64,000 nucleotides of DNA from a virus. How positions within the stretch are numbered: position 1 is the stretch's first letter; each line of letters begins with the position of its first letter. The position numbers and the translations under genes were made by a program. The stretch lies in the IMG/VR virus record IMGVR_UViG_2551306393_000012; one strand, given 5' to 3'. The notes beneath the pieces are model-generated. The model saw nothing but the letters and a program-made list of their open reading frames with translations. It was not told where the DNA came from and ran no database searches. Shown here piece by piece: positions 3,678 to 36,029 of this stretch.

Positions 3678-4022
3678 TCAGATATGCTCCTTAGTGTTTT
3701 CTTCTTTTAACTTTTTGTTTAGTTTGAAGCCAATTAAGACATTGACAATAGCTGCTGGAAGATATAAAATCCCTGCACCTATTATTCCTAGTGCAGTACT
3801 TAAGCTCACAATAAATGTCTGCATTTCTGTGTTTCTTGACTTAAAGCAAAGTAATATTAGGAGTCCAGCTAAAACCCCCATAAGCCGGGCGATACCTGAA
3901 ATAAAGAAATCTGTTAGGACTCCAAATAATTGCCCTATAATTGATAGCATAATCCCTAAAAAACTGGACAATAAAACTAAATTTTTAATGGCATTTTTCC
4001 CCCTCTTCAAAGCCGCTTCCAT
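3678..4022 (-). CDS. Three-TM membrane protein (DUF4064-like)
   Basis: Three hydrophobic helices; the start may instead be ATT at 3989 (see findings). Confidence 0.65.
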   Translation of the reverse strand: MEAALKRGKNAIKNLVLLSSFLGIMLSIIGQLFGVLTDFFISGIARLMGVLAGLLILLCFKSRNTEMQTFIVSLSTALGIIGAGILYLPAAIVNVLIGFKLNKKLKEENTKEHI

Positions 4023-4138
4023 TCCACATACTCAAATCGCTTTTGATACAAGTCTTCAAGTATAGCAGCCCATTCAATCCATCCTTCAGCAACAATGCTT
4101 TTCATTTCTCCATCCTCAATCCACTCTATCCAATACAC
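4007..4138 (-). CDS. yopG: Small phage protein, 43 aa (MYWIEWIEDGEMKSIVAEGW...)
   Basis: Below the track cutoff; GTG start with SD AGGAG, TGA at 4009-4007; size and position fit SPbeta yopG. Confidence 0.65.
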   Translation of the reverse strand: MYWIEWIEDGEMKSIVAEGWIEWAAILEDLYQKRFEYVEWKRL

Positions 4139-4148
4139 TTGAACACTC

Positions 4149-4364
4149 CTAACGCTTTACGACTTGAATTTCTCTTACCTCACATTGGACATTACACTTC
4201 GTTTTAAGCTCACTTGCTACCTCGATGACTTCTAACATATTATGCATTTTAGAAGCTTCATGGAGGTCGCTAGATGTCAAATAACCGTCCTCATCTAACT
4301 TAAATGATTTGAAGTATTCCTTGTTTTCAAACTGCAGTACATAAAAATAATCAAGCAAAGGCAT
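4149..4364 (-). CDS. yopF: Small phage protein, 71 aa
   Basis: SD AGAGGT; size and position next to the yopG-like gene. Confidence 0.55.
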   Translation of the reverse strand: MPLLDYFYVLQFENKEYFKSFKLDEDGYLTSSDLHEASKMHNMLEVIEVASELKTKCNVQCEVREIQVVKR

Positions 4365-4424: not shown

Positions 4425-4691
4425 CATGAAAAAAGCAATCGTATTAAGCTTATTTTTGAAAAACAAGCTGGAGAGTACCGAAATGTCACTAAGGGGAAGG
4501 TTACAGACACAGACCAGCTGCTTCTTGATGAGGATGCGGAGAGGTACATCTTACACAAATGTCAGGAAGACTTGGATGCAGCCCGAGAGGAGTTTAAAGA
4601 CCACTGGATGTCTTGGACTTCCTTAGACGGTACCACCTATGAAGGGGTTTTCACGATTAACTTGTCACACTCACTGTCTTGCATTATCTGA
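4425..4691 (+). pseudogene. Start-less or frameshifted ORF at the left edge of the island
   Basis: Frame 4425-4691 reads HEKSNRIKLIFEKQAGEYRNVTKGKVTDTDQLLLDEDAERYILHK...SCII*; the ATG at 4426 is one base out of frame, before an A6 run. Confidence 0.5.
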
Positions 4692-4754
4692 TAGGACATG
4701 CAGTTTAGAATCCTACCAAAGATATCAAGTCGATAAGGGAAGCTAATCCCATGC

Positions 4755-7004
4755 CTACGGCGCCACTCTTCGTTCTCTCCACTCTGATAAGATTGACTCG
4801 GGACAGACTAGCTCATAACCTTTAGATCGCTCCTTGTGCTTAACAAGCCAGCCCTCTTCCACTAATTTACCCATGAGTTCCTTCATCTTTGCAGTCTTCA
4901 CACCTAATGCTTTCCTAAGCGGCTCTACTCTGGTTTCCTCTGTAGTAGCTATCACTTGCTTTAGTCGGTATAGGTGGTCATCCTCAATTTCAGGTTCTTG
5001 TTCCGGCTGTTCCGGTACCTCTTCTGCCTCTGGAGAGACTTCAGCTCCCCCATAGTAGTCAATAAGAGCTTTGTATACTTTCTCCTCCTCCGCCTCATTC
5101 GGGGCAATTATAGCACTCTGGAAGCGTTGGAACTCTTTAGGGTATCCCTCAATCTTCATTACTCCATCTCCTTTACCTAGCAACCCAGTATAAGGGATAG
5201 TCGTACCAAAAACAGTTCTGTAATTGACGCTGGTGTTTAAGTTGAAGCTAATGGCGTTCGGGATGTTTGCTTTGATCCTACCGCTAAGAATATTCGAACT
5301 CGGTCTCTGAGTGGCGATGACTAGGTGAATACCTGCTGCCCGTGCCTTCTGCCCTAAGCGAGCAATATATTCTTCGACTTCCTTATTCGTGTCCACAAGG
5401 TCTGCATACTCATCTATAACACAGACGGTGTAAGGCATAGGTGTACTTGACTTCTGATTGTACAAAGTAATGTTCTTCACATCGTTATCTTTAAATGTTT
5501 TGTATCGCTTCTCCATTTCCATAACAAGGTCTTCTAATACTTGTGCAGCGCCTCCCATGTCTGTAACCACATCGTCTACATGAGGGAATCCCTTGTACTG
5601 CTGTAGCTCCACTTGCTTAGGGTCAATCAGAGTCATCCGTAACCTATCAGGAGGGTAACTGACCAGCAGCGTAGTGATCATCGAATTTAGGAACACGGAC
5701 TTACCACTTCCGGTAGTTCCCGCTACCATGAGATGAACAAGCTTAGCCAGTGATAAATAAATTGGGTTGTTCACTTCGTCCACACCTACAGCAAAGGCTA
5801 GTTCATTGTTCTTACTGTACTCTTGGAAGTTGGCTGTGCCAATCAGTTCTCTAAGGCTGATGATAGCTGGTTGGTTATTCGGAATGACAAACTTAACTGT
5901 GTCAGCAGTATCTCCTTGCTCAACTCCTAATGAAGGGACACCTAGTGCTGCCTGTATGTCCTTACCCTTCTGTACAATATGGCTCAGGTTCTTTCCTTTA
6001 GGGATGTCGCATTGAACTACAGTTAACCTAATACCTGCTGTTACAGATTCATTGTAGACTCGTGCTGCTTTAATCAACCCTACCCGTTTCAGTGCCTCAG
6101 CAATATTCATAACGAGGCTCTCATCTGCATGGACTTCCTCTCTGTGATGCTCTGGCAGCAGCTTAATAATTTCTTTCGTAACTCCTGGTGTGGATAGGGA
6201 AACAGGCGCCGTCTGGGGTGCTACTACGTTTTGGCTGCCTAGTAAGGAGAAGAGTTCTTTTGTACTTATTATCCGGTCTCCTGTCTCTGATGTCATAATG
6301 CAAGTTTCATACTGAGTCTCGGTTTGTTTATGCTTTTGTTTATACAACCGGATAGAGTTATGGGAGTCGTAAGTCCGCAGTACCTGAGTGACCCTGCTCT
6401 TTAAGTAGTCTTCTCGCTCGGATTGCATCGCTACCCGCATCTGGAACTGAAAGCCATCACTGAGCAGCTTTTCCTCCACTTCTGGCACGTACTCATTTAC
6501 CGATTCAAAAGAAGCTATCCTGTTCAGTACAGATAATGTCTTCTCCTGAATAAACCTACCGATTCTAAATGATGCCGGGTAGTCGTTCCCTTCTAAGTAA
6601 CTTGCATACATGTCTAAGGCTTTCTCTTTCCAATGGAACTTCTTCTTAAAGAGCAGTTGTATACACAACCGCTCTCCATTGTATAAAGCAATGTCCTCCA
6701 GATCACTTAAAAATTGCCCCTTATTAGCTCCATACAGCGGTAGAAAGTGTGGACGAGATAAATACCCTTCATAGAACGTAAAACCGCTCACAGAGGATTC
6801 TCGAAAGCTTGAGGCATCTTCTCCTAGTCGAACATGAGGAGGAGTGACGAGAAACTTAGTGGTCACCCCTGAAGACATTACGATCTCTACCCCAAACAGA
6901 GAATCTGTTACTTCCTTTATGATCCGGGAAAGCCCTGTACTTACATCCTGCGTCTCCACAAAGTAATTGGAAATGTTCTGATAACTTGGATTAACTTTTA
7001 ACAT
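4755..7004 (-). CDS. FtsK/SpoIIIE-family DNA translocase with an extra N-terminal domain
   Basis: Walker A AGTTGSGKS, LIDPK, Walker B VIDEYAD, ATQRP, C-terminal winged-helix gamma-like domain; ~260-aa N-terminal extension with no clear TM segments. Confidence 0.95.
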   Translation of the reverse strand: MLKVNPSYQNISNYFVETQDVSTGLSRIIKEVTDSLFGVEIVMSSGVTTKFLVTPPHVRLGEDASSFRESSVSGFTFYEGYLSRPHFLPLYGANKGQFLSDLEDIALYNGERLCIQLLFKKKFHWKEKALDMYASYLEGNDYPASFRIGRFIQEKTLSVLNRIASFESVNEYVPEVEEKLLSDGFQFQMRVAMQSEREDYLKSRVTQVLRTYDSHNSIRLYKQKHKQTETQYETCIMTSETGDRIISTKELFSLLGSQNVVAPQTAPVSLSTPGVTKEIIKLLPEHHREEVHADESLVMNIAEALKRVGLIKAARVYNESVTAGIRLTVVQCDIPKGKNLSHIVQKGKDIQAALGVPSLGVEQGDTADTVKFVIPNNQPAIISLRELIGTANFQEYSKNNELAFAVGVDEVNNPIYLSLAKLVHLMVAGTTGSGKSVFLNSMITTLLVSYPPDRLRMTLIDPKQVELQQYKGFPHVDDVVTDMGGAAQVLEDLVMEMEKRYKTFKDNDVKNITLYNQKSSTPMPYTVCVIDEYADLVDTNKEVEEYIARLGQKARAAGIHLVIATQRPSSNILSGRIKANIPNAISFNLNTSVNYRTVFGTTIPYTGLLGKGDGVMKIEGYPKEFQRFQSAIIAPNEAEEEKVYKALIDYYGGAEVSPEAEEVPEQPEQEPEIEDDHLYRLKQVIATTEETRVEPLRKALGVKTAKMKELMGKLVEEGWLVKHKERSKGYELVCPESILSEWRERRVAP

Positions 7005-7110
7005 CGTCTCTCACAGCTTTCATAATTAGACTACTTTGGACTGAGGTGACCAATGCATTCGTCAGCAGCATCGTTGTATTCAGAATCAGAATAAGCATGC
7101 CTGCACTCAT
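6991..7110 (-). CDS. Small hydrophobic protein, 39 aa (MSAGMLILILNTTMLLTNALVTSVQSSLIMKAVRDDVKS)
   Basis: Below the track cutoff; strong SD AGGAGGT; overlaps the ftsK start. Confidence 0.65.
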   Translation of the reverse strand: MSAGMLILILNTTMLLTNALVTSVQSSLIMKAVRDDVKS

Positions 7111-7123
7111 GTGACTTTACCTC

Positions 7124-8485
7124 CTATTTTTTCTTCATGTCTTTAACGCGCTTGTAAACTGTCTGTGCCGCTGAAGACGGCTTCATGAGAATCTTGGCTG
7201 TATCCTTAAAGTTCCGTTGAACTTTTTTAATGGTATCATTTTTATCTCCGCCGTACACTTCATCCAGCCCGCCACCGTTATCCAGATGTCTAGCAATAAG
7301 TCTTGGTGGAGAAGTCATTCTGGTGAACCCGCCGATTACTACAAGCATCTTCACTACGATCCCTACAACGTCCTTAGGTGTCGGTACGCCGAATATAAAC
7401 CAGCCAAGGATCAGTAGGAAGAGCGCATAGTAAACCTGCACCATAGATAAGTGTTTCAAGTTACTCCACCACTGCTGAAACAGATGTCTGTACGGATCGA
7501 ATATCCAAGCTGTCAGTGCCAGCGGGGCTGTTACTCCCAAAACCATGACATCAAAAAATCTTCTGCCATTCTGCCACAGCACCGGAACAATTGTAGAAAT
7601 AAGAACTACATCGAATAACACCAGCGAGCACACATCCCATACAGAGATATGAGTAGGGAGAGCGATAGCGTCCATCGTACTTGCTCCCATTGAGATGAGT
7701 ATATCTGATATCTTGTTCAGTCCTTGGAAGGCTTTCTGAAAACAGAAAGGTATTCCAGTCATTGCCGTTGCTACAATCCCCCACCGTTGCATGATCAGTT
7801 TAAAATCCATTGGACCTGATCTCTTTTTCTTTCCTCTGCTGAGCATGAGCTTTACCGATTCAATGACGGTCAGAACGGAAACGATACCGATAGCCAGCAA
7901 ACTAAACAGATAAGTGGTATTCTCAAACCACTCGTTATTAAAAAGCCATAGGGGAGTCTTCAAAATCAGGGTAGCGCAGAGTTCATACAACCAGCTCATT
8001 AAATGGACAGACATTTCAGCGATGTTGTGCGGGAGGTCTGAAAGGAACTCATTTACTTTTGCTACAGCTGTATTGAACATCTGCACTGCTTCAGGTAGAG
8101 CTGTCAGGACATTTTGATCTTTGTTACGCCCCAGCAGAAGAAGGTCGATGGGTGCTTTTACATCTGTAGCTTGTGCGTAGGCTTTTGCCGACATAGAAGA
8201 GACAACAGCGGACGAGAGAACCGCTACGGGTGCCAGTGTAGCTGCTTTTAAAAGAGTCCGCTTAAAATCGGCAAGCTTTTGAATACCGTTTGCGCCAGAT
8301 AAAAGAGCAGATATACGACCGGGACTGCAACTAAAACCTGCACGAGACCCTTGATTACATCTGTCGTCCACTCCTCCGCTTCCTTCCGCTTCCTCATCAT
8401 TCTGTAAATCCCGGCTAATGTCAGGAGAGTCATCGACAATGCTACGCCCACCGATACAGAGATTAAAGCTAAATTCAGACCCCAA
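7124..8485 (-). CDS. Polytopic membrane protein, VirB6/TrbL-like (start uncertain)
   Basis: 5-7 TM helices; RRFFDVMVLGVTAPLALTAWIFD...FQQWW...VQVYYALFL resembles Gram-positive VirB6-like proteins; export-signal-like segment KRTLLKAATLAPVAVL...AYAQA. Confidence 0.6.
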   Translation of the reverse strand: MGSEFSFNLCIGGRSIVDDSPDISRDLQNDEEAEGSGGVDDRCNQGSRAGFSCSPGRISALLSGANGIQKLADFKRTLLKAATLAPVAVLSSAVVSSMSAKAYAQATDVKAPIDLLLLGRNKDQNVLTALPEAVQMFNTAVAKVNEFLSDLPHNIAEMSVHLMSWLYELCATLILKTPLWLFNNEWFENTTYLFSLLAIGIVSVLTVIESVKLMLSRGKKKRSGPMDFKLIMQRWGIVATAMTGIPFCFQKAFQGLNKISDILISMGASTMDAIALPTHISVWDVCSLVLFDVVLISTIVPVLWQNGRRFFDVMVLGVTAPLALTAWIFDPYRHLFQQWWSNLKHLSMVQVYYALFLLILGWFIFGVPTPKDVVGIVVKMLVVIGGFTRMTSPPRLIARHLDNGGGLDEVYGGDKNDTIKKVQRNFKDTAKILMKPSSAAQTVYKRVKDMKKK

Positions 8486-8799
8486 CTCATCACCATTGCT
8501 GGTGTTATCTGATTGGCTGCTGCTGTCGTGGTTGCTCCGGTTAGAGGTGCTGCGGCAAAGGCTTTGGGTGTTGCTTGTATTCCCGCCCCCATAACCACAA
8601 CGAATCCTTTCAGCAATTTCTTCAGCTGCTTGATCTTTTTTCTCTGCTGTCCGGTCGTTCCCTTGATCACCTCCTTTTGCAGGGTGCTTGCAATAAAAAG
8701 CACATCGTCTTCAACTTTCTCCTTAAGGTTAAACTGCTGTACCGGGCTTTTGTAACTGACAGCTGGATTGGGGTCTCTAGATGACATCGTAATGATCAT
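8248..8799 (-). CDS. VirB2/TrbC pilin-like membrane protein
   Basis: Likely start ATG 8799 (SD AAGGAGGT); processing-like AFAA, then two TM helices separated by a basic loop (RMMRKRKEAEEW). Confidence 0.55.
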   Translation of the reverse strand: MIITMSSRDPNPAVSYKSPVQQFNLKEKVEDDVLFIASTLQKEVIKGTTGQQRKKIKQLKKLLKGFVVVMGAGIQATPKAFAAAPLTGATTTAAANQITPAMVMSWGLNLALISVSVGVALSMTLLTLAGIYRMMRKRKEAEEWTTDVIKGLVQVLVAVPVVYLLFYLAQTVFKSLPILSGLF

Positions 8800-8812
8800 T
8801 TCAGTTACCTCC

Positions 8813-9013
8813 TTATAGGTGATTATCTGTACGTACTTTTTTACCCAGATCATCCAGTCTGCTTCTGTTCGGGTTACGTGTTTCTCTAACGGTCTTTTTC
8901 TTTTTATCCACATCCGGCTCATAGTTATGGAACCATTTCAAAGCTGCTGCTAAACCAGTGCCTGCGGAACAAACAACTGCAACTCCGCCTACTGCCAAAA
9001 AGATACTCGTCAT
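8813..9013 (-). CDS. Small single-TM protein, 66 aa
   Basis: ATG 9013 with SD AGGGGG; N-terminal hydrophobic helix, basic tail. Confidence 0.65.
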   Translation of the reverse strand: MTSIFLAVGGVAVVCSAGTGLAAALKWFHNYEPDVDKKKKTVRETRNPNRSRLDDLGKKVRTDNHL

Positions 9014-9173
9014 TTTTAATTCCCCCTGTATAATTGAAATTCGGTCGGACATACTAACTCTTGAAAGGAGGTAGCGACCGTGCTCTTTGACTCTAAACCG
9101 CTGACCAGATACGAGAAGCAAATGCAGAATGTTGATCATCTGGTTCTTCACACAATTAAGGATAAGCAGAATG

Positions 9174-9734
9174 TCAACATAACCATGAGAGAACTATATC
9201 GGATATTAGAGACACTGTACGATTTTCGAGTAATAGACTGATGCAGTTCAATGTCATCTCCGATAACGTCTGAGTAAACTGGTTCAGCGCTTGGTTTAGT
9301 ATTTCCAGAGCATCCAAGCCAGAGTTAACGGTTGCGTGAGCTGCCCCTTTTAATTGATCCATACGCTGAATGAGTGAAGTGTACGGTGTCGGGTCTATAA
9401 ATTCTCCGTGCTCCTTTATACCGAAGTGGAGATGAGGACCCGTGCTATGCCCCGTATTACCTGAATGACCTAAAATATCACCCACATGTGCCGACTGACC
9501 ATCGCTCACTGAAAAATCCTTCAGGTGTCCATAGATATATGTTCTTCCATCAGCCGCATCTATGAACACCGTTTTTCCTGTGGAAGAACTACCGTAGTCT
9601 GCTGTTCTGATTACTCCCTCGACTATGGCTTTCAGAGCAGTTCCTTCAGGCATCGCCAGATCGACACCTGTATGCGGATGGTCCCTAAATGCTTCTGTAG
9701 CCTGAAATCGTGAAGTGATTGTGTATTTGACCAC
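9174..9734 (-). CDS. M23-family metallopeptidase (peptidoglycan hydrolase)
   Basis: HTGVD (HxxxD), YIYGHL, STGPHLHF (HxH); GTG start with SD AGAGGTG. Confidence 0.93.
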   Translation of the reverse strand: MVKYTITSRFQATEAFRDHPHTGVDLAMPEGTALKAIVEGVIRTADYGSSSTGKTVFIDAADGRTYIYGHLKDFSVSDGQSAHVGDILGHSGNTGHSTGPHLHFGIKEHGEFIDPTPYTSLIQRMDQLKGAAHATVNSGLDALEILNQALNQFTQTLSEMTLNCISLLLENRTVSLISDIVLSWLC

Positions 9735-9862
9735 CTTTTCTCACCTCTTTCTTCCCTTATTTCCTTAATTCCTACACTCTAAAAACACACTATTTTCGGG
9801 CTTTTTACTGCAAATTTCCTTGTTTCCCTCGGAAATTAGGCTTTTTGGAAAAAAGCGGGAAA

Positions 9863-10171
9863 TTAGAATCTATCTAGCCTTTCCTCGATGTCTTCATCGG
9901 ACAACTCTTTCTTCTTCAAAACGATATTGGACAGCTCAGGAGGATTACTTTGTATGCCATTTTCCTGTGGTACAACTTGAGCAGGCGGTGCGGGAGCTGC
10001 GGTCGGGCAGGTTCTATACTTAATCCCATCTCTAATCAACTCCCGGATCACAAAGGAAAAGTCGTAGCGTTCATCCATAAGCGGCTCAATATACTCTAGA
10101 ATGTCCTTATCCTTCCTGTCACTAAGGTAAAGTGTTCGTCTGTTGTTTTTCTTACTTCGGTCTGTACTCAT
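9863..10171 (-). CDS. ParR-like ribbon-helix-helix DNA-binding adaptor
   Basis: Start ATG 10171 overlaps the parM end; RTLYLSDRKDKDILEYI...FSFVIRELIRDGI fits RHH strand-helix-helix; acidic flexible tail; position downstream of parM. Confidence 0.65.
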   Translation of the reverse strand: MSTDRSKKNNRRTLYLSDRKDKDILEYIEPLMDERYDFSFVIRELIRDGIKYRTCPTAAPAPPAQVVPQENGIQSNPPELSNIVLKKKELSDEDIEERLDRF

Positions 10172-11231
10172 GATTACCCACCTGAATCTTGATGTTATTT
10201 GCCTTCTTAGGGTTCTTTTTCGATTGTCGGATTCCATACTTGCGGAGACCCCTGACATTTGAATAACGGTCTAAGAAAACAGAAGGTACTCTGTTGAAGC
10301 GCTTTTCAATATACGGTCTCAGCAGCTCTTTCCCGGCTCCTCCGCCTGTGAAGATGACAGAAGTAACAAAACCCCAGGAGTTGACTAGCACCTTGTCTAG
10401 TACAGCTAGTATTGTGTTGGCATGATTCTCGTATGTGCTATTAATAAGCGGTGTGATATCCATGTTCTTGATTTCCTTTTGGCTAATGATCTGCGGTAGC
10501 TTACCGTCCGGGATGATCACGTCAAGCTCCTTCTCTAGATAGGAACCTACCTGACTGAATGCTGTGTACATCCCATCGTTCGTTTGTAGTGAAAGCTCTG
10601 TCTGTTCCTCTAAGGCGTCTACAGTGAGGATGTTTAGTGTCCGGGCACCTACATCTACAATGACGTTGAACCCTTTGGCTGTGTCCTTATCAATGATGTC
10701 TCCGTTACCATCCAGTATCACATCACACAGACTACCGAACGGCTGCTTCTTAATCTCCACGTTATTTACTGTGATCATTCTTTTAATGAAGTTTACTCCA
10801 TCGCTGCTTAAAGCTACGGTGTGAGTACCTTGAGCTACTTCTGTAAGCTGCTGCCGTCTCTCTGCTGTGTCGTATCTGATAGGAAGGTTCATCATGAGTG
10901 TGTCGATTACTTCATGTCTTCCCGAGCTCATTAGTCCAAGGGTAGTTTTTAATAAGACCGGGAACCTCTTGTCAGCATGTTTGTTTTCCCCTCCAGCCCA
11001 GATGATGTTTGGGTCCAGCTTCATTGCGTAGTCTCCGACTACATATCTTTCTCCGTCAATCTCACTGGCTACATACCGCAGCTTGCTGTCTTGCCCAAAG
11101 TCCTTTTTAGGCTTCTCCTTAAAACTTGTGACGAATGATGGGATAAGATTAGGAGAGCCTGTGCTGTCGAATTTTACATCCCCGTACCCATCGTCCAACG
11201 CTTTTACATTAAAACCCGCATACTTTGTCAT
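10152..11231 (-). CDS. ParM/StbA-family actin-like ATPase
   Basis: Phosphate-1 ALDDGYGDVK, connect-1 KQPFG, phosphate-2 IVDVGARTLN, adenosine FTGGG; start ATG 11231 with SD AAGGAGG. Confidence 0.92.
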   Translation of the reverse strand: MTKYAGFNVKALDDGYGDVKFDSTGSPNLIPSFVTSFKEKPKKDFGQDSKLRYVASEIDGERYVVGDYAMKLDPNIIWAGGENKHADKRFPVLLKTTLGLMSSGRHEVIDTLMMNLPIRYDTAERRQQLTEVAQGTHTVALSSDGVNFIKRMITVNNVEIKKQPFGSLCDVILDGNGDIIDKDTAKGFNVIVDVGARTLNILTVDALEEQTELSLQTNDGMYTAFSQVGSYLEKELDVIIPDGKLPQIISQKEIKNMDITPLINSTYENHANTILAVLDKVLVNSWGFVTSVIFTGGGAGKELLRPYIEKRFNRVPSVFLDRYSNVRGLRKYGIRQSKKNPKKANNIKIQVGNHEYRPK

Positions 11232-11285
11232 ACTTAACTCCTCCTTTGTCATTCCTTCGCATACTTTGTAATACCTTTGTGATTC
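11218..11285. repeat. Phased CTTTGT direct repeats over the parM start (parC-like)
   Basis: CTTTGT at 11223, 11244, 11264, 11275; GCATACTTTGT at 11218 and 11259. Confidence 0.6.
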
Positions 11286-11329
11286 TACTTTATGGGCATA
11301 TGCGGAATCCTATGTCTGTACATAATAAA

Positions 11330-11356
11330 AAAAACAAGGGTTATCCCCTTGTTTTT
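11330..11356. terminator. Bidirectional rho-independent terminator
   Basis: AAAAACAAGGG-TTATC-CCCTTGTTTTT. Confidence 0.75.
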
Positions 11357-11420
11357 AGTGGTATGAGCCTCTATATCTAGTCCTACGTTTAGGTCGCCTT
11401 CTTAATAGACAGACTTTCAA

Positions 11421-11840
11421 TTAGCGTTGAATCATCCGTCCATATACGGAATCCTGTCGAGTCCTCTTCCGTTTATTCTCGGCAGCTTCCGGAAACATGC
11501 GAAAAAACTCGGCTTCGTCTTCGATCGGCTTTCGGAAATAATAGACGAGGTTCTTCGCGCCGCCTCCGTTCTCTACCGTCTGTATAAGTTGCGCCTGGAC
11601 AAGCGTTTTGACCGCGTTACGATACGTTGAGTCGCTTATAGCCAGCGCCCTAGCCGCCTGTTCTTGCGTCGGAAAGGCGTAACCGTAGTCCGCGTTATAA
11701 AACTTCAGCAGAAACGCGTATACCAACACGGCGTTACCGTTCAGTTTCGGAAAGTATTGATAATGCGTAAGAATAACGTTAGGTATGCCCGTATAGCCCG
11801 CCGCAGTATCAAACGGTAGGGCCTTCGCTTTATCGCTCAT
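11421..11840 (-). CDS. Winged-HTH replication-initiator-like protein, probably C-terminally truncated
   Basis: YTGIPNVIL...AVLVYAFLL...YAFPTQEQAARALAISDSTYRNAVKTLVQAQLI is typical of HTH_36/replisome-organiser N-termini; sequence style changes near 11460. Confidence 0.7.
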   Translation of the reverse strand: MSDKAKALPFDTAAGYTGIPNVILTHYQYFPKLNGNAVLVYAFLLKFYNADYGYAFPTQEQAARALAISDSTYRNAVKTLVQAQLIQTVENGGGAKNLVYYFRKPIEDEAEFFRMFPEAAENKRKRTRQDSVYGRMIQR

Positions 11841-11871
11841 ATAATCGTCCTCTACTTAAATAATATTCGAC

Positions 11872-12050
11872 TTAAGCCGGCTTGCGGCGCTGCCACTCCG
11901 TCAATAAACGATCGAGTTCGGGCGTTCGCGCATATTGCAAAACTTCCGTAAAGTATTTTCGTTTAAGCCTACGCTGATATAGCGTTGGTCATGGTCGCGC
12001 AGGAATTCGTATAGATTCGCAGAATAGCAGTAATAAAAGCCGTTTTGCAT
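11872..12050 (-). pseudogene. Frameshifted small phage gene (DUF5659-like)
   Basis: SD GGAGGTG; MQNGFYYCYSANLYEFL...TLRKF, then one missing base near 11938; restoring it gives FWQYARTPELDRLLTEWQRRKPA*. Confidence 0.6.
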
Positions 12051-12117
12051 TCGGTCGCACCTCCGTAATTAGATAAATAAAAAGGCGCCTATGCGCCCGT
12101 ATGCGTAATTCCCGCAA

Positions 12118-13613: not shown

Positions 13614-15410
13614 TTAGCAAACAAGTTCATGTTGCCTATACTCATCAAAAAACATATTACAGTGACCAATTTGACTAAGATACAGGCTCTCCTTAGGTCT
13701 TGTTACGCCGACATAAAATAATCTTGCTTCGTCTAAAAGATCGCTTTTTCTATGAGGAAACTTACCATCTTCAACCCCAATTAAAAACACATGTTTAAAT
13801 TCTAGACCCTTGCTTGCGTGAATACTCATTAATCGCACGGCATTTTCATTTTTCTTTTTACTTGGCTTGCTGCCGTATACAAAATTAATGAACTGCTCTA
13901 AGTTATTATTCTTAACAAATTTCTTCATGGTATTGAGAGATTCTTTTCTGTCAGTTATCTCATCTTCATCGAGGTATTTCTCTTCTATGTAATCATTCAT
14001 TCTGAAAGTTTTAACTACATTGTCGATCAATTCTTCCACGGCAATCCCTTTAAGCACTTGCATTTGGAGTTTATTAATCATACTTTGGAATTTCAAGACA
14101 TTATCGTTTTGAGTCGGACGATCAAATCTCAAATTTAACATGGCCTCATATAGGGACATATTTGTTTGTCCGGCAAATGACTCAACATCTTTTAAATTCT
14201 TATTGCTAAAATAACGAAATGGATCATTCCTTAGTGTGAAAATATCTCGAAAGGCTGCATCATCATGTGGATCACGAATTAATCTTAAATAAGCTACAAT
14301 CCCTTTTACCTCTTTTCTCTTGAAAAAGCTCCCATTATTAGTAATATCATATTCAATTTCACGCCTTTTTAATTCATTCTCAACATAGCTAGAATGAGAG
14401 TTTAATCTATAAAGGACACAAATTTCTGATGGTTTTTCACCGGCTTTAAGCAATGTTTCAATTTTATCAGCTGTATTCAGACCTTCTGCTTCTCTGTCCT
14501 GATACGTTAGTGTTTGAATTTCGCCATTGTTATGAATATTAGGGACGGAGTCTGCGTAATGTTCATAGTCACCATAGTATTCCTTGATAAAGCTGTTTGC
14601 GTTATCAACTATGTTTTTATTTGATCTATAATTTGTATCCAGGTTAATCACAGTGGCGTTTTCCCAATCCTTTTCAAACTCCATACAATACTCAGTATTG
14701 CCGCCTCTAAATGTGTAAATAGCTTGTCTATAATCGAATAAGCAGAATATGTTACCAGAGGCGCAAAGTTCTTTTAAAATGAGATTTTGTACTAAGTTAG
14801 AATCTTGATGCTCGTCTACAAGAATAAATTCATACGTATACTTATGTTTATTGTTTTTTAGCACCTTGTAACACTCCAATAAATAATCATCATAATCGTA
14901 CAGTCCGTTTTTGGATTTAAAAGCCTCATACTCCTTATAGAAGAGACGTAATTGCTCCTCGGTATATTTACTCTCTTTAATTAAAAACTCGTCTGTGTAG
15001 CCCCTTAAAAAGTTCTTTTGGTAGCTGATGAAACCCGTAATGTCTTTAATGTCTGGTTTCTCTTCAAGTGATTTAAAACAGTTTTCTCGCTGCCATTCTT
15101 TAATCGTATTTTTCTCGTTAATTTCAATTCCCTCTTTGAGAAGAATGTTGCGGCATACTGAATGAAATGTACCTACATTCACACTAGTTAATTTCTGCTT
15201 ATGTAATTTCTTCTTAAGCTCATTTGCAGTATTACGCGTAAAACTGATGGCTAAAATATCCTCTTGATCTTCACCGTAATCCCTCACCAATGTTTTAACA
15301 CGGTTAAGGAGAACGGTGCTTTTACCGCTCCCTGCCCCTGCAATGACTGCGCAAGCTCCTTTATAAAAATTAATCGCTTCTAATTGTTGTTTGTTAAATT
15401 TTACAGTCAT
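13614..15410 (-). CDS. UvrD/PcrA-like SF1 DNA helicase
   Basis: Q motif, AGAGSGKS, ISFTRNTA, VDEHQDSN, QAIYTFRG, NYRS, LMSIHASKGLEF, EARLFYVGVTR. Confidence 0.95.
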   Translation of the reverse strand: MTVKFNKQQLEAINFYKGACAVIAGAGSGKSTVLLNRVKTLVRDYGEDQEDILAISFTRNTANELKKKLHKQKLTSVNVGTFHSVCRNILLKEGIEINEKNTIKEWQRENCFKSLEEKPDIKDITGFISYQKNFLRGYTDEFLIKESKYTEEQLRLFYKEYEAFKSKNGLYDYDDYLLECYKVLKNNKHKYTYEFILVDEHQDSNLVQNLILKELCASGNIFCLFDYRQAIYTFRGGNTEYCMEFEKDWENATVINLDTNYRSNKNIVDNANSFIKEYYGDYEHYADSVPNIHNNGEIQTLTYQDREAEGLNTADKIETLLKAGEKPSEICVLYRLNSHSSYVENELKRREIEYDITNNGSFFKRKEVKGIVAYLRLIRDPHDDAAFRDIFTLRNDPFRYFSNKNLKDVESFAGQTNMSLYEAMLNLRFDRPTQNDNVLKFQSMINKLQMQVLKGIAVEELIDNVVKTFRMNDYIEEKYLDEDEITDRKESLNTMKKFVKNNNLEQFINFVYGSKPSKKKNENAVRLMSIHASKGLEFKHVFLIGVEDGKFPHRKSDLLDEARLFYVGVTRPKESLYLSQIGHCNMFFDEYRQHELVC

Positions 15411-31971: not shown

Positions 31972-32964
31972 ATGCCAAGAAAAGCTAAAGAAAAGGAAAA
32001 ATTGATCTGTGCTGCTTGTCAAAAAGAAAAGGACAAAGAGTCGGGGTTCTACAATTCACGAAGTAGCCTTTATGAGAAAACAGGCAAAGTCCCTATTTGC
32101 AAGACTTGCTTGAAGAAAAATATTGATTACAGCAATATTGAGTCAATATATACAGTCTTACAACAGATCGATGTTAAATTTGATCCTTTGTATTGGGAAC
32201 AAGCTGAAAAGAGAAAAACAGATACATTTAGCGCTTATATGACAATGGCTAATTCTTTGAAGCAATTTAACGGTACTGGTTGGAAGGACAGTATTCTAGA
32301 ACAACAACAAGAAAAAGCTATTGCTGCCGAAACTCAGCGTGATTCAGTAGAACAAGTCTCAGATGAAATAATTGATAAATGGGGAATTGGTTATACACCC
32401 GATGAATACCACCAGTTTGAAAGGAAGTACAACAAACTCATTCGAAATTATGGAGAAAAAACCGCTCTCCATACTGAGGGATTACTCTCCTATATTCGCT
32501 TTCGTGTCAAAGAAGAACTAGCTACAGCTAAGGGAGAAGTAAAGGAAGCTAAAGAGTGGGGTCAAATGGCTTCAAAAGCAGCTACTGACGCAAAGATCAA
32601 CGTTTCTCAGTTAAGCAAAAGCGATATTAGTGGCGGTGTGGATGTGCTTTCACAACTATTCGAAGCAGTTGAAACTGAATTAGGCATCATCCCTCTCCTT
32701 CCCCGCCTAACCGCTCAACCTTACGATGATGCTGATTTAATCATTTGGGCCATAATCAATTATTACAGAAGACTAGAGGATAAAGAAAAAGTAGCTTATA
32801 AAGACATATATCATTTTTACGATGAGATGCTCGAAGAAGATTTCAAATCAAAGGGGCTAACTACAGAAGAAATTGAAAACTTGAAAAAAGCACGAAACAA
32901 CGTTTTCCGTGACTTAGAAGATGTGTATAAAGAGCCACTTTACGACACTGGGGATGAAGAATAA
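31972..32964 (+). CDS. yonG: YonG, putative terminase small subunit / packaging protein
   Basis: ATG 31972 (SD GGAGGTG); N-terminal CxxC...CxxC; coupled to the terminase large subunit. Confidence 0.75.
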   Translation: MPRKAKEKEKLICAACQKEKDKESGFYNSRSSLYEKTGKVPICKTCLKKNIDYSNIESIYTVLQQIDVKFDPLYWEQAEKRKTDTFSAYMTMANSLKQFNGTGWKDSILEQQQEKAIAAETQRDSVEQVSDEIIDKWGIGYTPDEYHQFERKYNKLIRNYGEKTALHTEGLLSYIRFRVKEELATAKGEVKEAKEWGQMASKAATDAKINVSQLSKSDISGGVDVLSQLFEAVETELGIIPLLPRLTAQPYDDADLIIWAIINYYRRLEDKEKVAYKDIYHFYDEMLEEDFKSKGLTTEEIENLKKARNNVFRDLEDVYKEPLYDTGDEE

Positions 32965-35900
32965 TGGCAAGCTACAAAAACTTCACCTCTAAGAACAATA
33001 AACATACAAAAAATCGAACAGATATTTATGAATCCTCATTTGAAACTCCAGTAAATCCCAATGATAGCTCTAACTTAATACAGAAAAACATTTCAAAATG
33101 GGCAGAATTCACCTCCTTCATTCGTTTTTATCCTGATATTTTTTATGACATGTTAAAACCCGAAGTTGGTGGAATTGAACTTGATTTATACCAAAGAGTT
33201 ATGATGAGAACTCTAAGTCGCTTCCCTCAAAATTACTTCTGTATTCCTCGCGGTGGATCAAAATGTGTTGCAGGAGACACAGTTTTATTTACTGAAAATG
33301 GATTAGTAGAAATTGGCGCACTATTCAATTACGAAAAAAAAGAGTCTGAAGTTGAAACAATACATAAAATCTCAATGAAAAACAGATATGGTCTAATGGA
33401 AACTTCTATGGCCGGCATATCAAGCGGATTCAAGAAAACGAAGAAAATCAAAACTCAAGATGGCTATGACTTGGAAGCAAGTTTAAATCACCCAGTATTA
33501 GTAATGTGTGAAGATGGAAAACTAAGATACAAAAATTCTAGTGAAATTAAAGTTGGAGATTTATTACCTATTTCAAGAAACAATAATGTATTTGGAAGTG
33601 AAACAAAGCTAAATGTAAGCTTTGATGATTTCTTAAATGGATTTAGCAATCAAGGCAGATGGCAAGTAGAAAGAAACAAATTCAATATTCCAGAATACAT
33701 TGATGAACAATTAGCATTAATTATTGGTTATCTTCTTGGTGATGGTTGCTTGACTAGAAACAATTCAATACTTTTTACAAATGAAGACGAAGATATATTA
33801 AATAATTATATAGATTATTTTAACAACGTATTAGGTATTGCAGTTAAGCAAAAAGATAGAATTAATTTTATCGTATTTGGTAAGCTCATTCGAGAATTCT
33901 TCAGACAGTTAGGACTGGAAGAAAAAGATGCTTTTGGTAAGGAAATACCTAAAATTATACTTAAAGCACCTAAAAATATTGTTGCAAAAACAATACAAGG
34001 TCTATTTGATACCGATGGATGTGTGACAAATAAAAGCGTACAATTTTGCACTGCATCAGAAAAAATGAGTAAACAAGTTCAAATGTTACTTTTAAACTTT
34101 GGTATTATTTCTTTCAGAAAAAAATATCTAAATAAAAAATTTAATACTTATCATTATAAGATCAATATTTCTACAAAGAATATTGATCTTTTTTTACGGG
34201 AAATTGGATTTAGTTGTTCAAGAAAGCAAGAAAAACTTATATCAATATGTAACAAAAATCGCAATCCAAATAAAGATGTCATCCCTTATCAGCAAGATAA
34301 CATTATAGCAATTTATCCTAAAGGTAAAACAAGAGATAAATTTTATCATGTTCTTAAAGGATCTAATGATCTTACTTACGAAAAATTATCACTATTATTA
34401 AGTGAAAATGAGCGTTTTGATAATAAAGATAGCGATGAATTCAACCATTTAGTAGAGCTTTATGATTCTAATTACTATTACACTAAAGTAATTGAAACAG
34501 AAGACTCTGAGAACTACGTTTATGATCTATATATGCCTTTAACCAACTCATTTGTAAGTAATGGATTAGTTAGTCATAATACATTGACCCAGATCATGGT
34601 AGCGTACCATACAGCAATTTGTTTTCCAAATGTCACACTAGCTATAACCGCTTCAACCAAAGAATCTGCGGTTAAAATTTGGAAAGAAAAACATGATGAA
34701 ATCCTAAGATTCTACCCTTCTATTGCAGATGAAATCAAAAACGAAAGTTTTTCCAAAGATACTGGAAGAGTTGAATTTCAAAATGGCGCAATTATCGATA
34801 ACCTAGCCAATGCCCAATCTTCAAAGGGATTACGTAGAAGACGTGGCTCTCTTGAAGAATCTGCATTAATCGATAAAGATCTCTATGATGATGCCATTGA
34901 ACCAATATTCAATATTCCACGAACTACAATGACTGGTGAAATTGATCCTGCAGAATTAAATGGTCAAATAAACCGTTTTTCAACATCAGGATACAAAAAC
35001 TCTGATGAATACGAAAAGATTCTTACTATGGTTAAAGAAACTGGTGACTTGAAAGGCTCCTTTGTGTTTGGATCTGATTGGAGAATTCCTATCCACTTTG
35101 GTCGTCAAAAAATGTCCACGATTAATAAAGCCAGACAAGGAAACGTTACCCGTTTTCGACAAAATTACCTTTGTGATTGGATTGGTGCAAGTGACGGAGC
35201 TTTAATCAACATCAGTAAATTAATTAAAGCCAGAACTATTACACAACCAGAGCTATCTTGTCCTCGGGATAAAAACAAAAACTTTTTGCTTAATGAGTAT
35301 GTTATTGGTGTAGACGTTGCACGTTCTGCAGCTGAGTCAAACAACAAAACTGCTATTATTGTTTTAAAAATTATAAGGAATAGTAATAACCTTATTAGAC
35401 AAGTTCAAGTAGTTAATATCATTGAACCACCTAATGGATTAAGCTTTAAGGAACAATCCATCATGGTGAAAAGAGTATTTAAAAATTATGGCGGAAACCA
35501 AGACCTCTCACTCTCTAGAGTCAAAGCTGTTGTTGTTGATGGTAATGGAGTCGGCGGTGGATTAATCGACCGATTATTAGAAGATGTTACTGATCCTGAA
35601 ACAAATGAAGAGCTTGGATGTTGGGCTACAATTAACACTGATCAAAAACCAGACGTGCCTAATTCACCTGAAGTCGTTTACAATCTAAAATCACAAGGTA
35701 TAAACCAGGATATTATCACCCAGTTTTTAGACTATGTTGAATCGGGGAAGTTAAAGTTACTCAAAGCTTTCGAAGATATCAAAAACCAAAAAGACATTGC
35801 AGACGATGTTATGGTTGAAGCAGCATGTATTCAAACTCAGTTGTTTATTGACGAAGTGGCCAACCTACGGATCAAGAAAAACCAAAATTCTTTTACTGTA

Positions 35901-36029
35901 GAACAGGTTGTAAAACGTATCGATAAAGACAGATACAGTGCGATTGCTTACGCCTTATATTACATTGCTCAATTTTTAGAGAAAGAGGAATCCGATGAAG
36001 AGTATTCATTTGGGTTCTTTTTTAATTGA
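32964..36029 (+). CDS. yonF: Terminase large subunit containing an intein (582-aa mature protein)
   Basis: PRGGSK^TL Walker A split by the intein; SLEESA Walker B; C-terminal nuclease motifs GVDVA, VDGNGVG, DRYSA. Confidence 0.92.
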   Translation: MASYKNFTSKNNKHTKNRTDIYESSFETPVNPNDSSNLIQKNISKWAEFTSFIRFYPDIFYDMLKPEVGGIELDLYQRVMMRTLSRFPQNYFCIPRGGSKCVAGDTVLFTENGLVEIGALFNYEKKESEVETIHKISMKNRYGLMETSMAGISSGFKKTKKIKTQDGYDLEASLNHPVLVMCEDGKLRYKNSSEIKVGDLLPISRNNNVFGSETKLNVSFDDFLNGFSNQGRWQVERNKFNIPEYIDEQLALIIGYLLGDGCLTRNNSILFTNEDEDILNNYIDYFNNVLGIAVKQKDRINFIVFGKLIREFFRQLGLEEKDAFGKEIPKIILKAPKNIVAKTIQGLFDTDGCVTNKSVQFCTASEKMSKQVQMLLLNFGIISFRKKYLNKKFNTYHYKINISTKNIDLFLREIGFSCSRKQEKLISICNKNRNPNKDVIPYQQDNIIAIYPKGKTRDKFYHVLKGSNDLTYEKLSLLLSENERFDNKDSDEFNHLVELYDSNYYYTKVIETEDSENYVYDLYMPLTNSFVSNGLVSHNTLTQIMVAYHTAICFPNVTLAITASTKESAVKIWKEKHDEILRFYPSIADEIKNESFSKDTGRVEFQNGAIIDNLANAQSSKGLRRRRGSLEESALIDKDLYDDAIEPIFNIPRTTMTGEIDPAELNGQINRFSTSGYKNSDEYEKILTMVKETGDLKGSFVFGSDWRIPIHFGRQKMSTINKARQGNVTRFRQNYLCDWIGASDGALINISKLIKARTITQPELSCPRDKNKNFLLNEYVIGVDVARSAAESNNKTAIIVLKIIRNSNNLIRQVQVVNIIEPPNGLSFKEQSIMVKRVFKNYGGNQDLSLSRVKAVVVDGNGVGGGLIDRLLEDVTDPETNEELGCWATINTDQKPDVPNSPEVVYNLKSQGINQDIITQFLDYVESGKLKLLKAFEDIKNQKDIADDVMVEAACIQTQLFIDEVANLRIKKNQNSFTVEQVVKRIDKDRYSAIAYALYYIAQFLEKEESDEEYSFGFFFN
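33264..34580 (+). mobile_element. Intein with a LAGLIDADG homing endonuclease (439 aa)
   Basis: Begins CVAGDT; block B ASLNHPV; LAGLIDADG-like IIGYLLGDG and IQGLFDTDG; ends FVSNGLVSHN followed by Thr. Confidence 0.95.

Follow-up and report, generated by a model that had tools for sequence, protein, structure and literature searches.

We analysed a 64,000-nucleotide (nt) stretch of viral DNA (IMG/VR virus record IMGVR_UViG_2551306393_000012; hereafter the window) and found that its SPbeta-like prophage carries a GC-rich island in which an actin-like partition system stands in one operon with a putative DNA-translocation machine. We tentatively propose that this module combines a ParMRC system with a machine that would move double-stranded DNA (dsDNA) across a septum, most likely into the forespore. 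From the sequences and structural models, we consider this reading plausible, if short of probable.

The operon comprises eight minus-strand genes between 4755 and 11231, the neighbouring ends of which overlap or nearly touch. A first-pass annotation, made from the DNA letters alone, had described eight co-directional, tightly coupled genes that were GC-richer than the backbone, and both points were confirmed: the strand is minus throughout, and the GC content is 0.42-0.47 over 4500-11500, and 44-47% for the eight genes, versus 0.28-0.33 in both flanks. Its inventory of the genes was likewise borne out by Pfam, PHROGs and the translations. All eight genes are present, and to these we add a ninth, antisense gene (9080-9241, plus strand). 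The island, placed by that annotation at 4425-11360, is real; the true insert runs from 4472 to 11456/11471. The features of the insert are as follows (aa, amino acids; TM, transmembrane):

4472..4775, no strand assigned: left boundary segment, made up of three short fragments of rearranged Nitunavirus DNA, one in direct and two in inverted orientation (from blastn comparison with phiNIT1, Grass and the empty site of provirus G001)
4755..7004, minus: hybrid translocase, 749 aa; Pfam FtsK_SpoIIIE 2e-47; no TM segment
6991..7110, minus: single-TM protein, 39 aa; phrog_4802 1.5e-18; overlaps the FtsK start codon by 14 nt; conserved across loci
7124..8371, minus: VirB6/TrbL-like polytopic protein, 415 aa; GTG start; phrog_3750
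8248..8799, minus: pilin-like protein, 183 aa; phrog_3528
8813..9013, minus: DUF7394 small membrane protein, 66 aa; Pfam DUF7394 1.7e-32; one N-terminal TM segment and a charged tail
9028..9241, plus: antisense unit, with a promoter (9028-9056), an AGGAGG ribosome binding site and a 53-aa gene (9080-9241); phrog_5065 1.8e-24
9174..9734, minus: M23 (LytM-type) peptidoglycan endopeptidase, 186 aa; Pfam Peptidase_M23 1.2e-26; phrog_7767
9863..10171, minus: ParR-like adaptor, 102 aa; phrog_3536 2.4e-33; start overlaps the end of parM
10152..11231, minus: ParM/Alp actin-like ATPase, 359 aa; Pfam ALP_N 5.6e-20 and MreB-like_C 4.6e-18; phrog_691 partition protein 3e-101
11228..11356, minus: control region, with the terminator of the upstream gene (11356-11330), a promoter-like pair and four iterons
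11456..11471, no strand assigned: right junction, microhomology CGGAAG..AGGAC in the 3' end of the resident HTH_36 gene (window, G001, L019 and phiNIT1 compared)

The translocase is built around a genuine FtsK motor, as had been called before. Residues ~263 to ~650 form an FtsK alpha/beta motor with a Walker A motif, which matched the FtsK structures 2ius/2iuu in the PDB at E 2e-54 over residues 263-520 and beyond; an acidic linker and a C-terminal winged helix follow. The gamma domain of the first-pass annotation turned out to be a different winged helix: the C-terminal 60 residues are conserved and give weak matches of the MarR/TrmB/GntR type, and no match to FtsK_gamma (PF09397) was found there at E up to 1. 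The N-terminal domain (residues 1-258) matched nothing in Pfam. In its AlphaFold2 model the predicted local distance difference test (pLDDT) score exceeds 90 over residues 10-258. When this model was compared with 48,161 chains using VIA, the best match was the N-terminal domain of TrwK/VirB4 (Z 12.1, root-mean-square deviation 3.4 Å, 204 residues), and the second was EccE (Z 8.4). Foldseek agreed with the VirB4-type fold, and the matches in the AlphaFold database (AFDB; E 1e-11 to 1e-6) were N-terminal regions of HerA, DUF87, TraD and FtsK-domain ATPases. As modelled, the ATPase is a hybrid in which a domain of VirB4-type N-terminal fold sits on an FtsK motor.

This fold qualifies the earlier statement that neither VirB4 nor a relaxase is seen in the window. 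Neither was found in the window open reading frames (ORFs) examined or in four phage genomes, and that part of the statement stands; the N-domain of the FtsK protein, however, has the VirB4 fold. The ten largest unassigned window ORFs outside the island include no relaxase and no canonical VirB4. Four complete Bastillevirinae genomes gave no CagE_TrbE_VirB match, and their sole AAA_10 match was ftsK itself, below the cut-off. Relaxase, Rep_trans and Mob_Pre matched nothing in these genomes or in G001, a search that did not include MobA_MobL and TrwC.

The VirB6-like protein contains at least five TM helices, besides a long basic leader and a signal-like segment that terminates in AYA. We moved its start after comparing 107 homologues; the start codon is conserved, as GTG here and as ATG in many relatives. 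The new start, at 8371, lies 124 nt inside the upstream pilin-like gene. Within this overlap (8248-8371) the basic leader is encoded in a second frame over the last membrane helix of the pilin-like protein, and the overlap is kept throughout the family. Features from a protein language model (Atlas) placed the protein with TrbL clusters (0.93, 211 of 256 features in common), and Pfam TrbL_4 matched 4 of 69 homologues, at best with 9e-7. The AlphaFold model, made from 69 sequences, has a mean pLDDT of 69, with values of 75-86 through most of the membrane core. All of the top five PDB matches of this model in Foldseek were TrwI/VirB6 of R388, and many of its AFDB cluster matches are named TrbL/VirB6. 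VIA-align against TrwI gave Z scores of 11.6, 10.6 and 10.3 over 231-237 of about 265 residues, the first of them over 237 of 261, versus 8.2 for the next unrelated row. A family profile run against 1.84 billion representatives found only 165 clusters; P0362, found at 8.5e-5, itself scores 2.8e-8 with Pfam TrbL, above the cut-off. Run against PDB sequences, the same profile reached TrwI at E 1.5 only, which we did not use as evidence alone. HlyIII matches in 7 of the 69 homologues were judged to be polytopic-membrane noise. The earlier VirB6-like call thus holds, given the Z of 11.6 to TrwI and the transitive profile link to Pfam TrbL.

The remaining membrane proteins are small. An alignment of 30 homologues showed that the pilin-like protein consists of a basic leader of ~70 aa, a TM segment in which an AxA site is conserved, and a hydrophobic hairpin of two helices joined by a basic loop. 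The first-pass annotation had called it VirB2-like. Its topology is indeed that of pilins of type IV secretion systems (T4SS), yet no family or structure search supports homology: Pfam and PDB searches gave no pilin match, and Atlas leads to TrbC/T4SS_pilin reached 0.80-0.84 only. The 39-aa protein is a candidate VirB3-like partner by its position alone; Pfam had no match for it or for the 53-aa antisense product. Both catalytic motifs of the M23 peptidase, HxxxD and HxH, are intact. A hydropathy scan found no membrane segment in the ATPase, the M23 peptidase, ParM or the adaptor.

ParM matched the archaeal actin Ta0583 (1e-8) and the ParM of pCBH (2e-5) in the PDB. The only named Atlas lead for the downstream adaptor was a plasmid stability/partition protein (0.86), and we call the adaptor ParR-like because of its gene position and the iterons upstream of parM. 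There, a promoter-like pair, CAGACA (11318-11313) and CATAAA (11294-11289) separated by 18 nt, precedes four ACAAAG iterons that start at 11280, 11269, 11249 and 11228, with spacings of 11, 20 and 21 nt. The iteron cluster is unique within the window. The promoter pair and the iterons are kept across phage genera while the spacers between them diverge. By its sequence this region is a putative parC-like site in the usual centromere-operator layout. A generic sigma-70 scan of the DNA returned no more sites than shuffled sequences did and missed the conserved parM promoter.

The ninth gene runs antisense to the 3' end of the M23 gene, with which it overlaps. Its promoter reads GTATA, 17 nt, CATACTA, which we take to be the established sigma-G consensus. 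The pattern occurs once in the window versus 0.01 occurrences expected. In 14 of 15 loci the antisense peptide is conserved along with both hexamers of the promoter, which stand 17 or 18 nt apart while the spacers vary; the fifteenth locus (Aquibacillus, L026) showed a weak peptide match alone.

We then found the module in virulent phages. Over 4653-11469 the island is ~95% identical at the nucleotide level to ~150-160-kb virulent myoviruses, namely phiNIT1, Grass, SPG24, the BSP series and SBSphiJ1-7; phiNIT1 is classified in Herelleviridae, Bastillevirinae, Nitunavirus. The order of the eight genes is the same in 10 of 12 viral loci, down to 40-60% amino-acid identity, and the two least similar loci hold the same genes with extra DNA between them. 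The VirB6-like protein is encoded in 159 phage records, 157 of which are named Bacillus phages. In trees of ftsK, parM and a membrane gene, the window grouped with two other B. subtilis prophage copies (support 98-100% for ftsK and parM, 83% for the membrane gene). This prophage clade falls within the phiNIT1/BSP38/Grass clade; Goe3 and more remote genera branch outside it. Because the prophage copies are nested in the virulent-phage clade, transfer ran from virulent to temperate phage. The island is neither a peculiarity of the prophage nor a plasmid relic, but a core module of virulent Bastillevirinae, captured at ~95% identity. A recent plasmid origin was rejected, a megablast search against plasmids having given a 460-bp flank match only.

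The junctions record how the module may have entered. The backbone is SPbeta-like, with synteny and identity to SPbeta/phi3T genomes on either side of the island: on the left, the match is to yopK-yopF of SPBc2, SPR and Goe12, at 94-97%, the right flank matches phi3T/SPbetaL5 from 13577 onward, and families of AimR, AimP, YopN and YonV are present in sister loci. The left junction (4471/4472) truncates a yopE-like gene, the intact homologue of which in locus L019 carries the Pfam label YopE-YndK. The scrambled fragments at the left end derive from ~3 kb downstream of ftsK in phiNIT1. At the right junction the C-terminus of the resident HTH_36 protein is chimeric, its last ~15 codons coming from the inserted DNA. 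G001, the nearest provirus examined, has an empty site, with about 600 bp in the place of the insert. Capture of the module by an SPbeta-like phage from a phiNIT1-type phage through illegitimate recombination is well supported by these sequence comparisons.

The cassette has since turned up in other settings. Copies that are 98.4-99.1% identical occur in at least four junction configurations among SPbeta-like prophages, and the eight genes and the antisense gene are intact in every prophage copy examined. Sequencing runs from several organisms contain the cassette, as do metagenomes from food fermentations, plants and soil. In L019 a ~140-bp segment with a 43-aa ORF (window 4011-4150) is duplicated, in the regions 5783-6243 and 14065-14611, around a block of SieB, a 176-aa gene and the module. 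A joint, 4150|4738, is common to two configurations. The sequences suggest that the cassette moves between SPbeta-like phages by recombination in duplicated or shared flanks. Searches of species-representative genomes yielded two genera only, Aquibacillus, with the full module, and Virgibacillus.

Part of the module exists apart from phages. The trio of pilin-like protein, VirB6-like protein and FtsK hybrid is encoded, at 28-33% identity, in large plasmids of the Bacillus cereus group that are typed non-mobilizable (188-364 kb; locus L002 is pBMB26). No ParM or M23 was found in the 19-kb locus of pBMB26 by similarity to the window proteins. The VirB6-like protein and FtsK also occur together in a remote metagenomic relative.

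Lysogens express the captured module. RNA-seq contigs cover 4738-11276 at a word depth of 50-1000, versus 0-6 in the prophage flanks; they break off shortly after the conserved promoter, at 11273-11276, and at the other end near 4009-4059. DNA runs from four strains showed equal depth over the module and its flanks, and DNA carry-over therefore does not explain the RNA pattern. Thus, the module is transcribed in lysogens while neighbouring prophage genes are silent, and the possibility, raised in the first-pass annotation, that the island is never transcribed falls away. A phage-type copy of the module is present in a food metatranscriptome. The 128-nt gap between the ParR-like gene and the M23 gene (9735-9862) contains several GGAAAT/ATTTCC direct and inverted repeats, and RNA contig depth rises downstream of it in two of three runs; it is possibly a second control site or an internal promoter.

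How might these parts work together? The ParR-like protein would bind the phased ACAAAG iterons at the parM promoter, and ParM filaments would move the iteron-bearing DNA molecule toward a pole or septum. A membrane platform derived from type IV secretion may form from the VirB6-like and pilin-like proteins together with the 39-aa and 66-aa membrane proteins, and the soluble ATPase would dock on it through its VirB4-type N-domain. The C-terminal winged helix would read the DNA of the element, and the FtsK motor would pump dsDNA through the membrane; because the substrate would be double-stranded, no relaxase would be needed. The M23 peptidase would open the septal wall. The barrier in question may be the sporulation septum, with the phage genome delivered into the forespore ('virospore' formation), and the antisense gene would act, or silence the operon, after arrival of the DNA. 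The first-pass annotation had suggested pumping either from cell to cell or into the forespore; we prefer the sporulation septum because of the conserved sigma-G-type antisense gene and because entrapment of virulent phage genomes in spores has been published: genomes of virulent Bacillus phages are translocated into forespores by a mechanism described as unresolved (PMC12991052).

Several observations weigh against delivery into the forespore by such a machine. The weakest point is the prophage itself: once integrated, an SPbeta prophage reaches the forespore as part of the chromosome anyway and need not benefit from a dedicated machine. Spo0A boxes are not enriched in the window (7 versus 6.8 expected, one of them within parM). 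The VirB6-like match is a helical bundle with Z below 13, in the range for which the alignment tool warns of common arrangements, and the pilin-like call comes from topology only. Pfam and PDB searches returned no family match for the ParR-like adaptor. The M23 peptidase has neither a signal peptide nor, by the hydropathy scan, a TM segment that would take it to the wall. Finally, the RNA evidence consists of contigs from three runs of one study, which do not report strand, condition or per-gene levels.

Other roles can be drawn from the same parts. The module could act entirely within the cell, ParMRC positioning replicating phage DNA and a membrane-tethered FtsK clearing or resolving it at division septa in the manner of SftA/SpoIIIE, with no exit of DNA. 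Its motor is closest to chromosomal FtsK, ParMRC systems segregate DNA inside cells, and the ATPase is soluble and free of TM segments, as is SftA of B. subtilis. However, a purely intracellular role does not account for the wall hydrolase, which is conserved, for the VirB6-like and pilin-like proteins, for a docking domain of VirB4 type or for the antisense gene of forespore type, and we regard it as unlikely. Most of these are parts of T4SS descent (VirB6-like protein, VirB4 N-domain, wall hydrolase, pilin-like protein), and they could serve for conjugation-like spread, one of the two routes of the first-pass annotation, in which dsDNA of the phage or excised prophage is exported independently of virions to a neighbouring cell, either a chain sister or an unrelated one, as by Streptomyces TraB. 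A single FtsK motor with a C-terminal winged helix, with no relaxase found, and expression in lysogens fit such spread. Against it, the home phages are strictly virulent and kill the host in a single cycle, and neither a VirB8-like component nor a surface adhesin was seen; the core-bearing plasmids are classed as non-mobilizable, and the conserved forespore-type promoter points to sporulation and not to mating. We consider conjugation-like spread distinctly improbable.

The capture itself invites two further explanations. Since the source is a virulent phage of the same host, lysogens might use the module against the donor phages: ParR, ATPase or channel proteins made in the lysogen (~95-98% identical to those of the invader) would mis-regulate or poison the module of the invader or expel its DNA. 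Consistent with such superinfection interference, expression of the module contrasts with silence elsewhere in the prophage, it lies in the variable yop region, a SieB-family gene adjoins it in one configuration, and it has spread to at least four prophage configurations. One or two genes would suffice for this purpose, yet all eight and the antisense gene are intact in every prophage copy examined, and we give interference only a small chance. The module might instead be a neutral passenger, a scar of recent recombination that happens to retain a promoter and has no effect on prophage or host. The junctions do look illegitimate, with microhomology, truncated neighbours and scrambled left-end fragments, and the prophage copies differ by only about 1%. 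We nonetheless find this very unlikely, as the cassette is present in several organisms and in metagenomes of food-fermentation, plant and soil origin, and its genes are intact in all four junction contexts.

The gene cluster of the virulent phages has been noticed before. In Bastille-like phages it was described as FtsK/SpoIIIE with a plasmid segregation protein (phiNIT1 orf359 to orf724; Grass, SPG24, SBSphiJ), and a role in sporulation or virulence was speculated (PMC4528723); an FtsK/SpoIIIE homologue with a plasmid segregation gene was also noted in such phages in PMC4197329 and PMC12651245. Our literature search found no description of the VirB6-like or VirB4-N-domain parts and no T4SS-like reading of the cluster. 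The window copy shares with these phages ~95% nucleotide identity, gene order, promoter, iterons and antisense gene. It differs in residing in a temperate SPbeta-like prophage, in being expressed by lysogens and in lacking the HNH endonuclease of phiNIT1. This homing endonuclease lies between the ParR-like gene and the M23 gene in phiNIT1 (L001 14596-15147) and several relatives, and is missing from the window and from BSP38. In phiNIT1, parM directly follows the levanase gene levP, of which the captured cassette still carries the last ~50 nt.

Gram-positive conjugation systems are exemplified by ICEBs1 Con and pCW3 Tcp. With the T4SS/conjugation core (TrwI/VirB6 and TrwK/VirB4 of R388) the module shares a VirB6-like protein, a VirB4-type N-domain, a wall hydrolase, small membrane proteins and a pilin-like hairpin in one operon. 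Unlike that core, it has an FtsK alpha/beta motor and no VirB4 ATPase domain, and it is without a separate VirD4 coupling protein; no relaxase or VirB8-like protein was detected in it. TraB of Streptomyces carries out dsDNA conjugation with an FtsK-like motor that has a C-terminal winged helix, without a relaxase and with Spd spreading proteins and clt repeats. In the module, too, one FtsK-like motor ends in a winged helix, no relaxase was found, and the substrate is presumably dsDNA. The two differ in element type and phylum, and where TraB uses Spd proteins the module has a VirB6-like channel; no clt-like repeat turned up in the module, in which no search aimed at recognition repeats was made.

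Compared with SpoIIIE, FtsK and SftA, the module ATPase belongs to the same motor family and, like SftA, is without TM segments. It differs in having a VirB4-fold N-domain and neither the four-helix membrane anchor nor FtsK_gamma, the membrane part being encoded in separate genes. On the partition side, ParMRC of plasmid R1 and Alp7ARC of pLS20 are type II partition systems, and AlpC is encoded by the CGP3 prophage. As in these, an actin-like ATPase has a small adaptor gene directly downstream and promoter iterons phased at 10-11 bp; in contrast to them, the module adaptor has no detectable family, the iterons are only four and short, and the system forms a single operon together with the putative translocation machinery of a virulent phage. 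The 'plasmid-like' gp11-gp18 region of Tyrovirus, which encodes ParM, a ribbon-helix-helix (RHH) protein, a type IV secretion protein and a replication-relaxation protein, was read as reflecting a plasmid-prophage lifestyle (PMC9703825). There too a Bacillus phage sets ParM beside a type IV secretion protein; the block is nonetheless a different one, and an FtsK motor is not reported there.

Genomes of virulent Bacillus phages have been known in spores for decades; for their route there the module offers a concrete and genetically tractable candidate, one that joins a partition system, a relaxase-free DNA pump and a putative forespore-specific antisense switch. We go further only with doubt in suggesting that it may stand for a hitherto unrecognised class of conduit in Bastillevirinae and the SPbeta prophages that captured it: a T4SS-derived platform in which an FtsK dsDNA motor replaces the VirB4 ATPase, fed by ParMRC, for virion-free passage of whole genomes across the septum into the forespore or sister cells. 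A hybrid of the two great DNA-pump families, with a VirB4 docking domain on an FtsK motor beside a VirB6-like protein, bears on the evolution of conjugation systems. The captures document recent gene flow from a strictly virulent myovirus to temperate SPbeta-like siphoviruses. Because the block was captured with its own promoter and lysogens express it, they may gain a new trait, be it in DNA transfer, spore biology or phage interference.

Two features outside the island deserve mention. A GC-rich patch at 11421-12110 (49% GC) holds an HTH_36/DnaD_N-like gene of 139 aa. We considered this patch (11470-12110) as a replication relic of the island and rejected the idea: G001 carries the patch without the module, and the patch is therefore a separate acquisition outside the island. 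In the SPbeta structural region, a 1021-aa ORF (window 32964-36029, plus strand) contains an intein with a LAGLIDADG endonuclease (Intein_splicing 4e-14, LAGLIDADG_3 5e-19).

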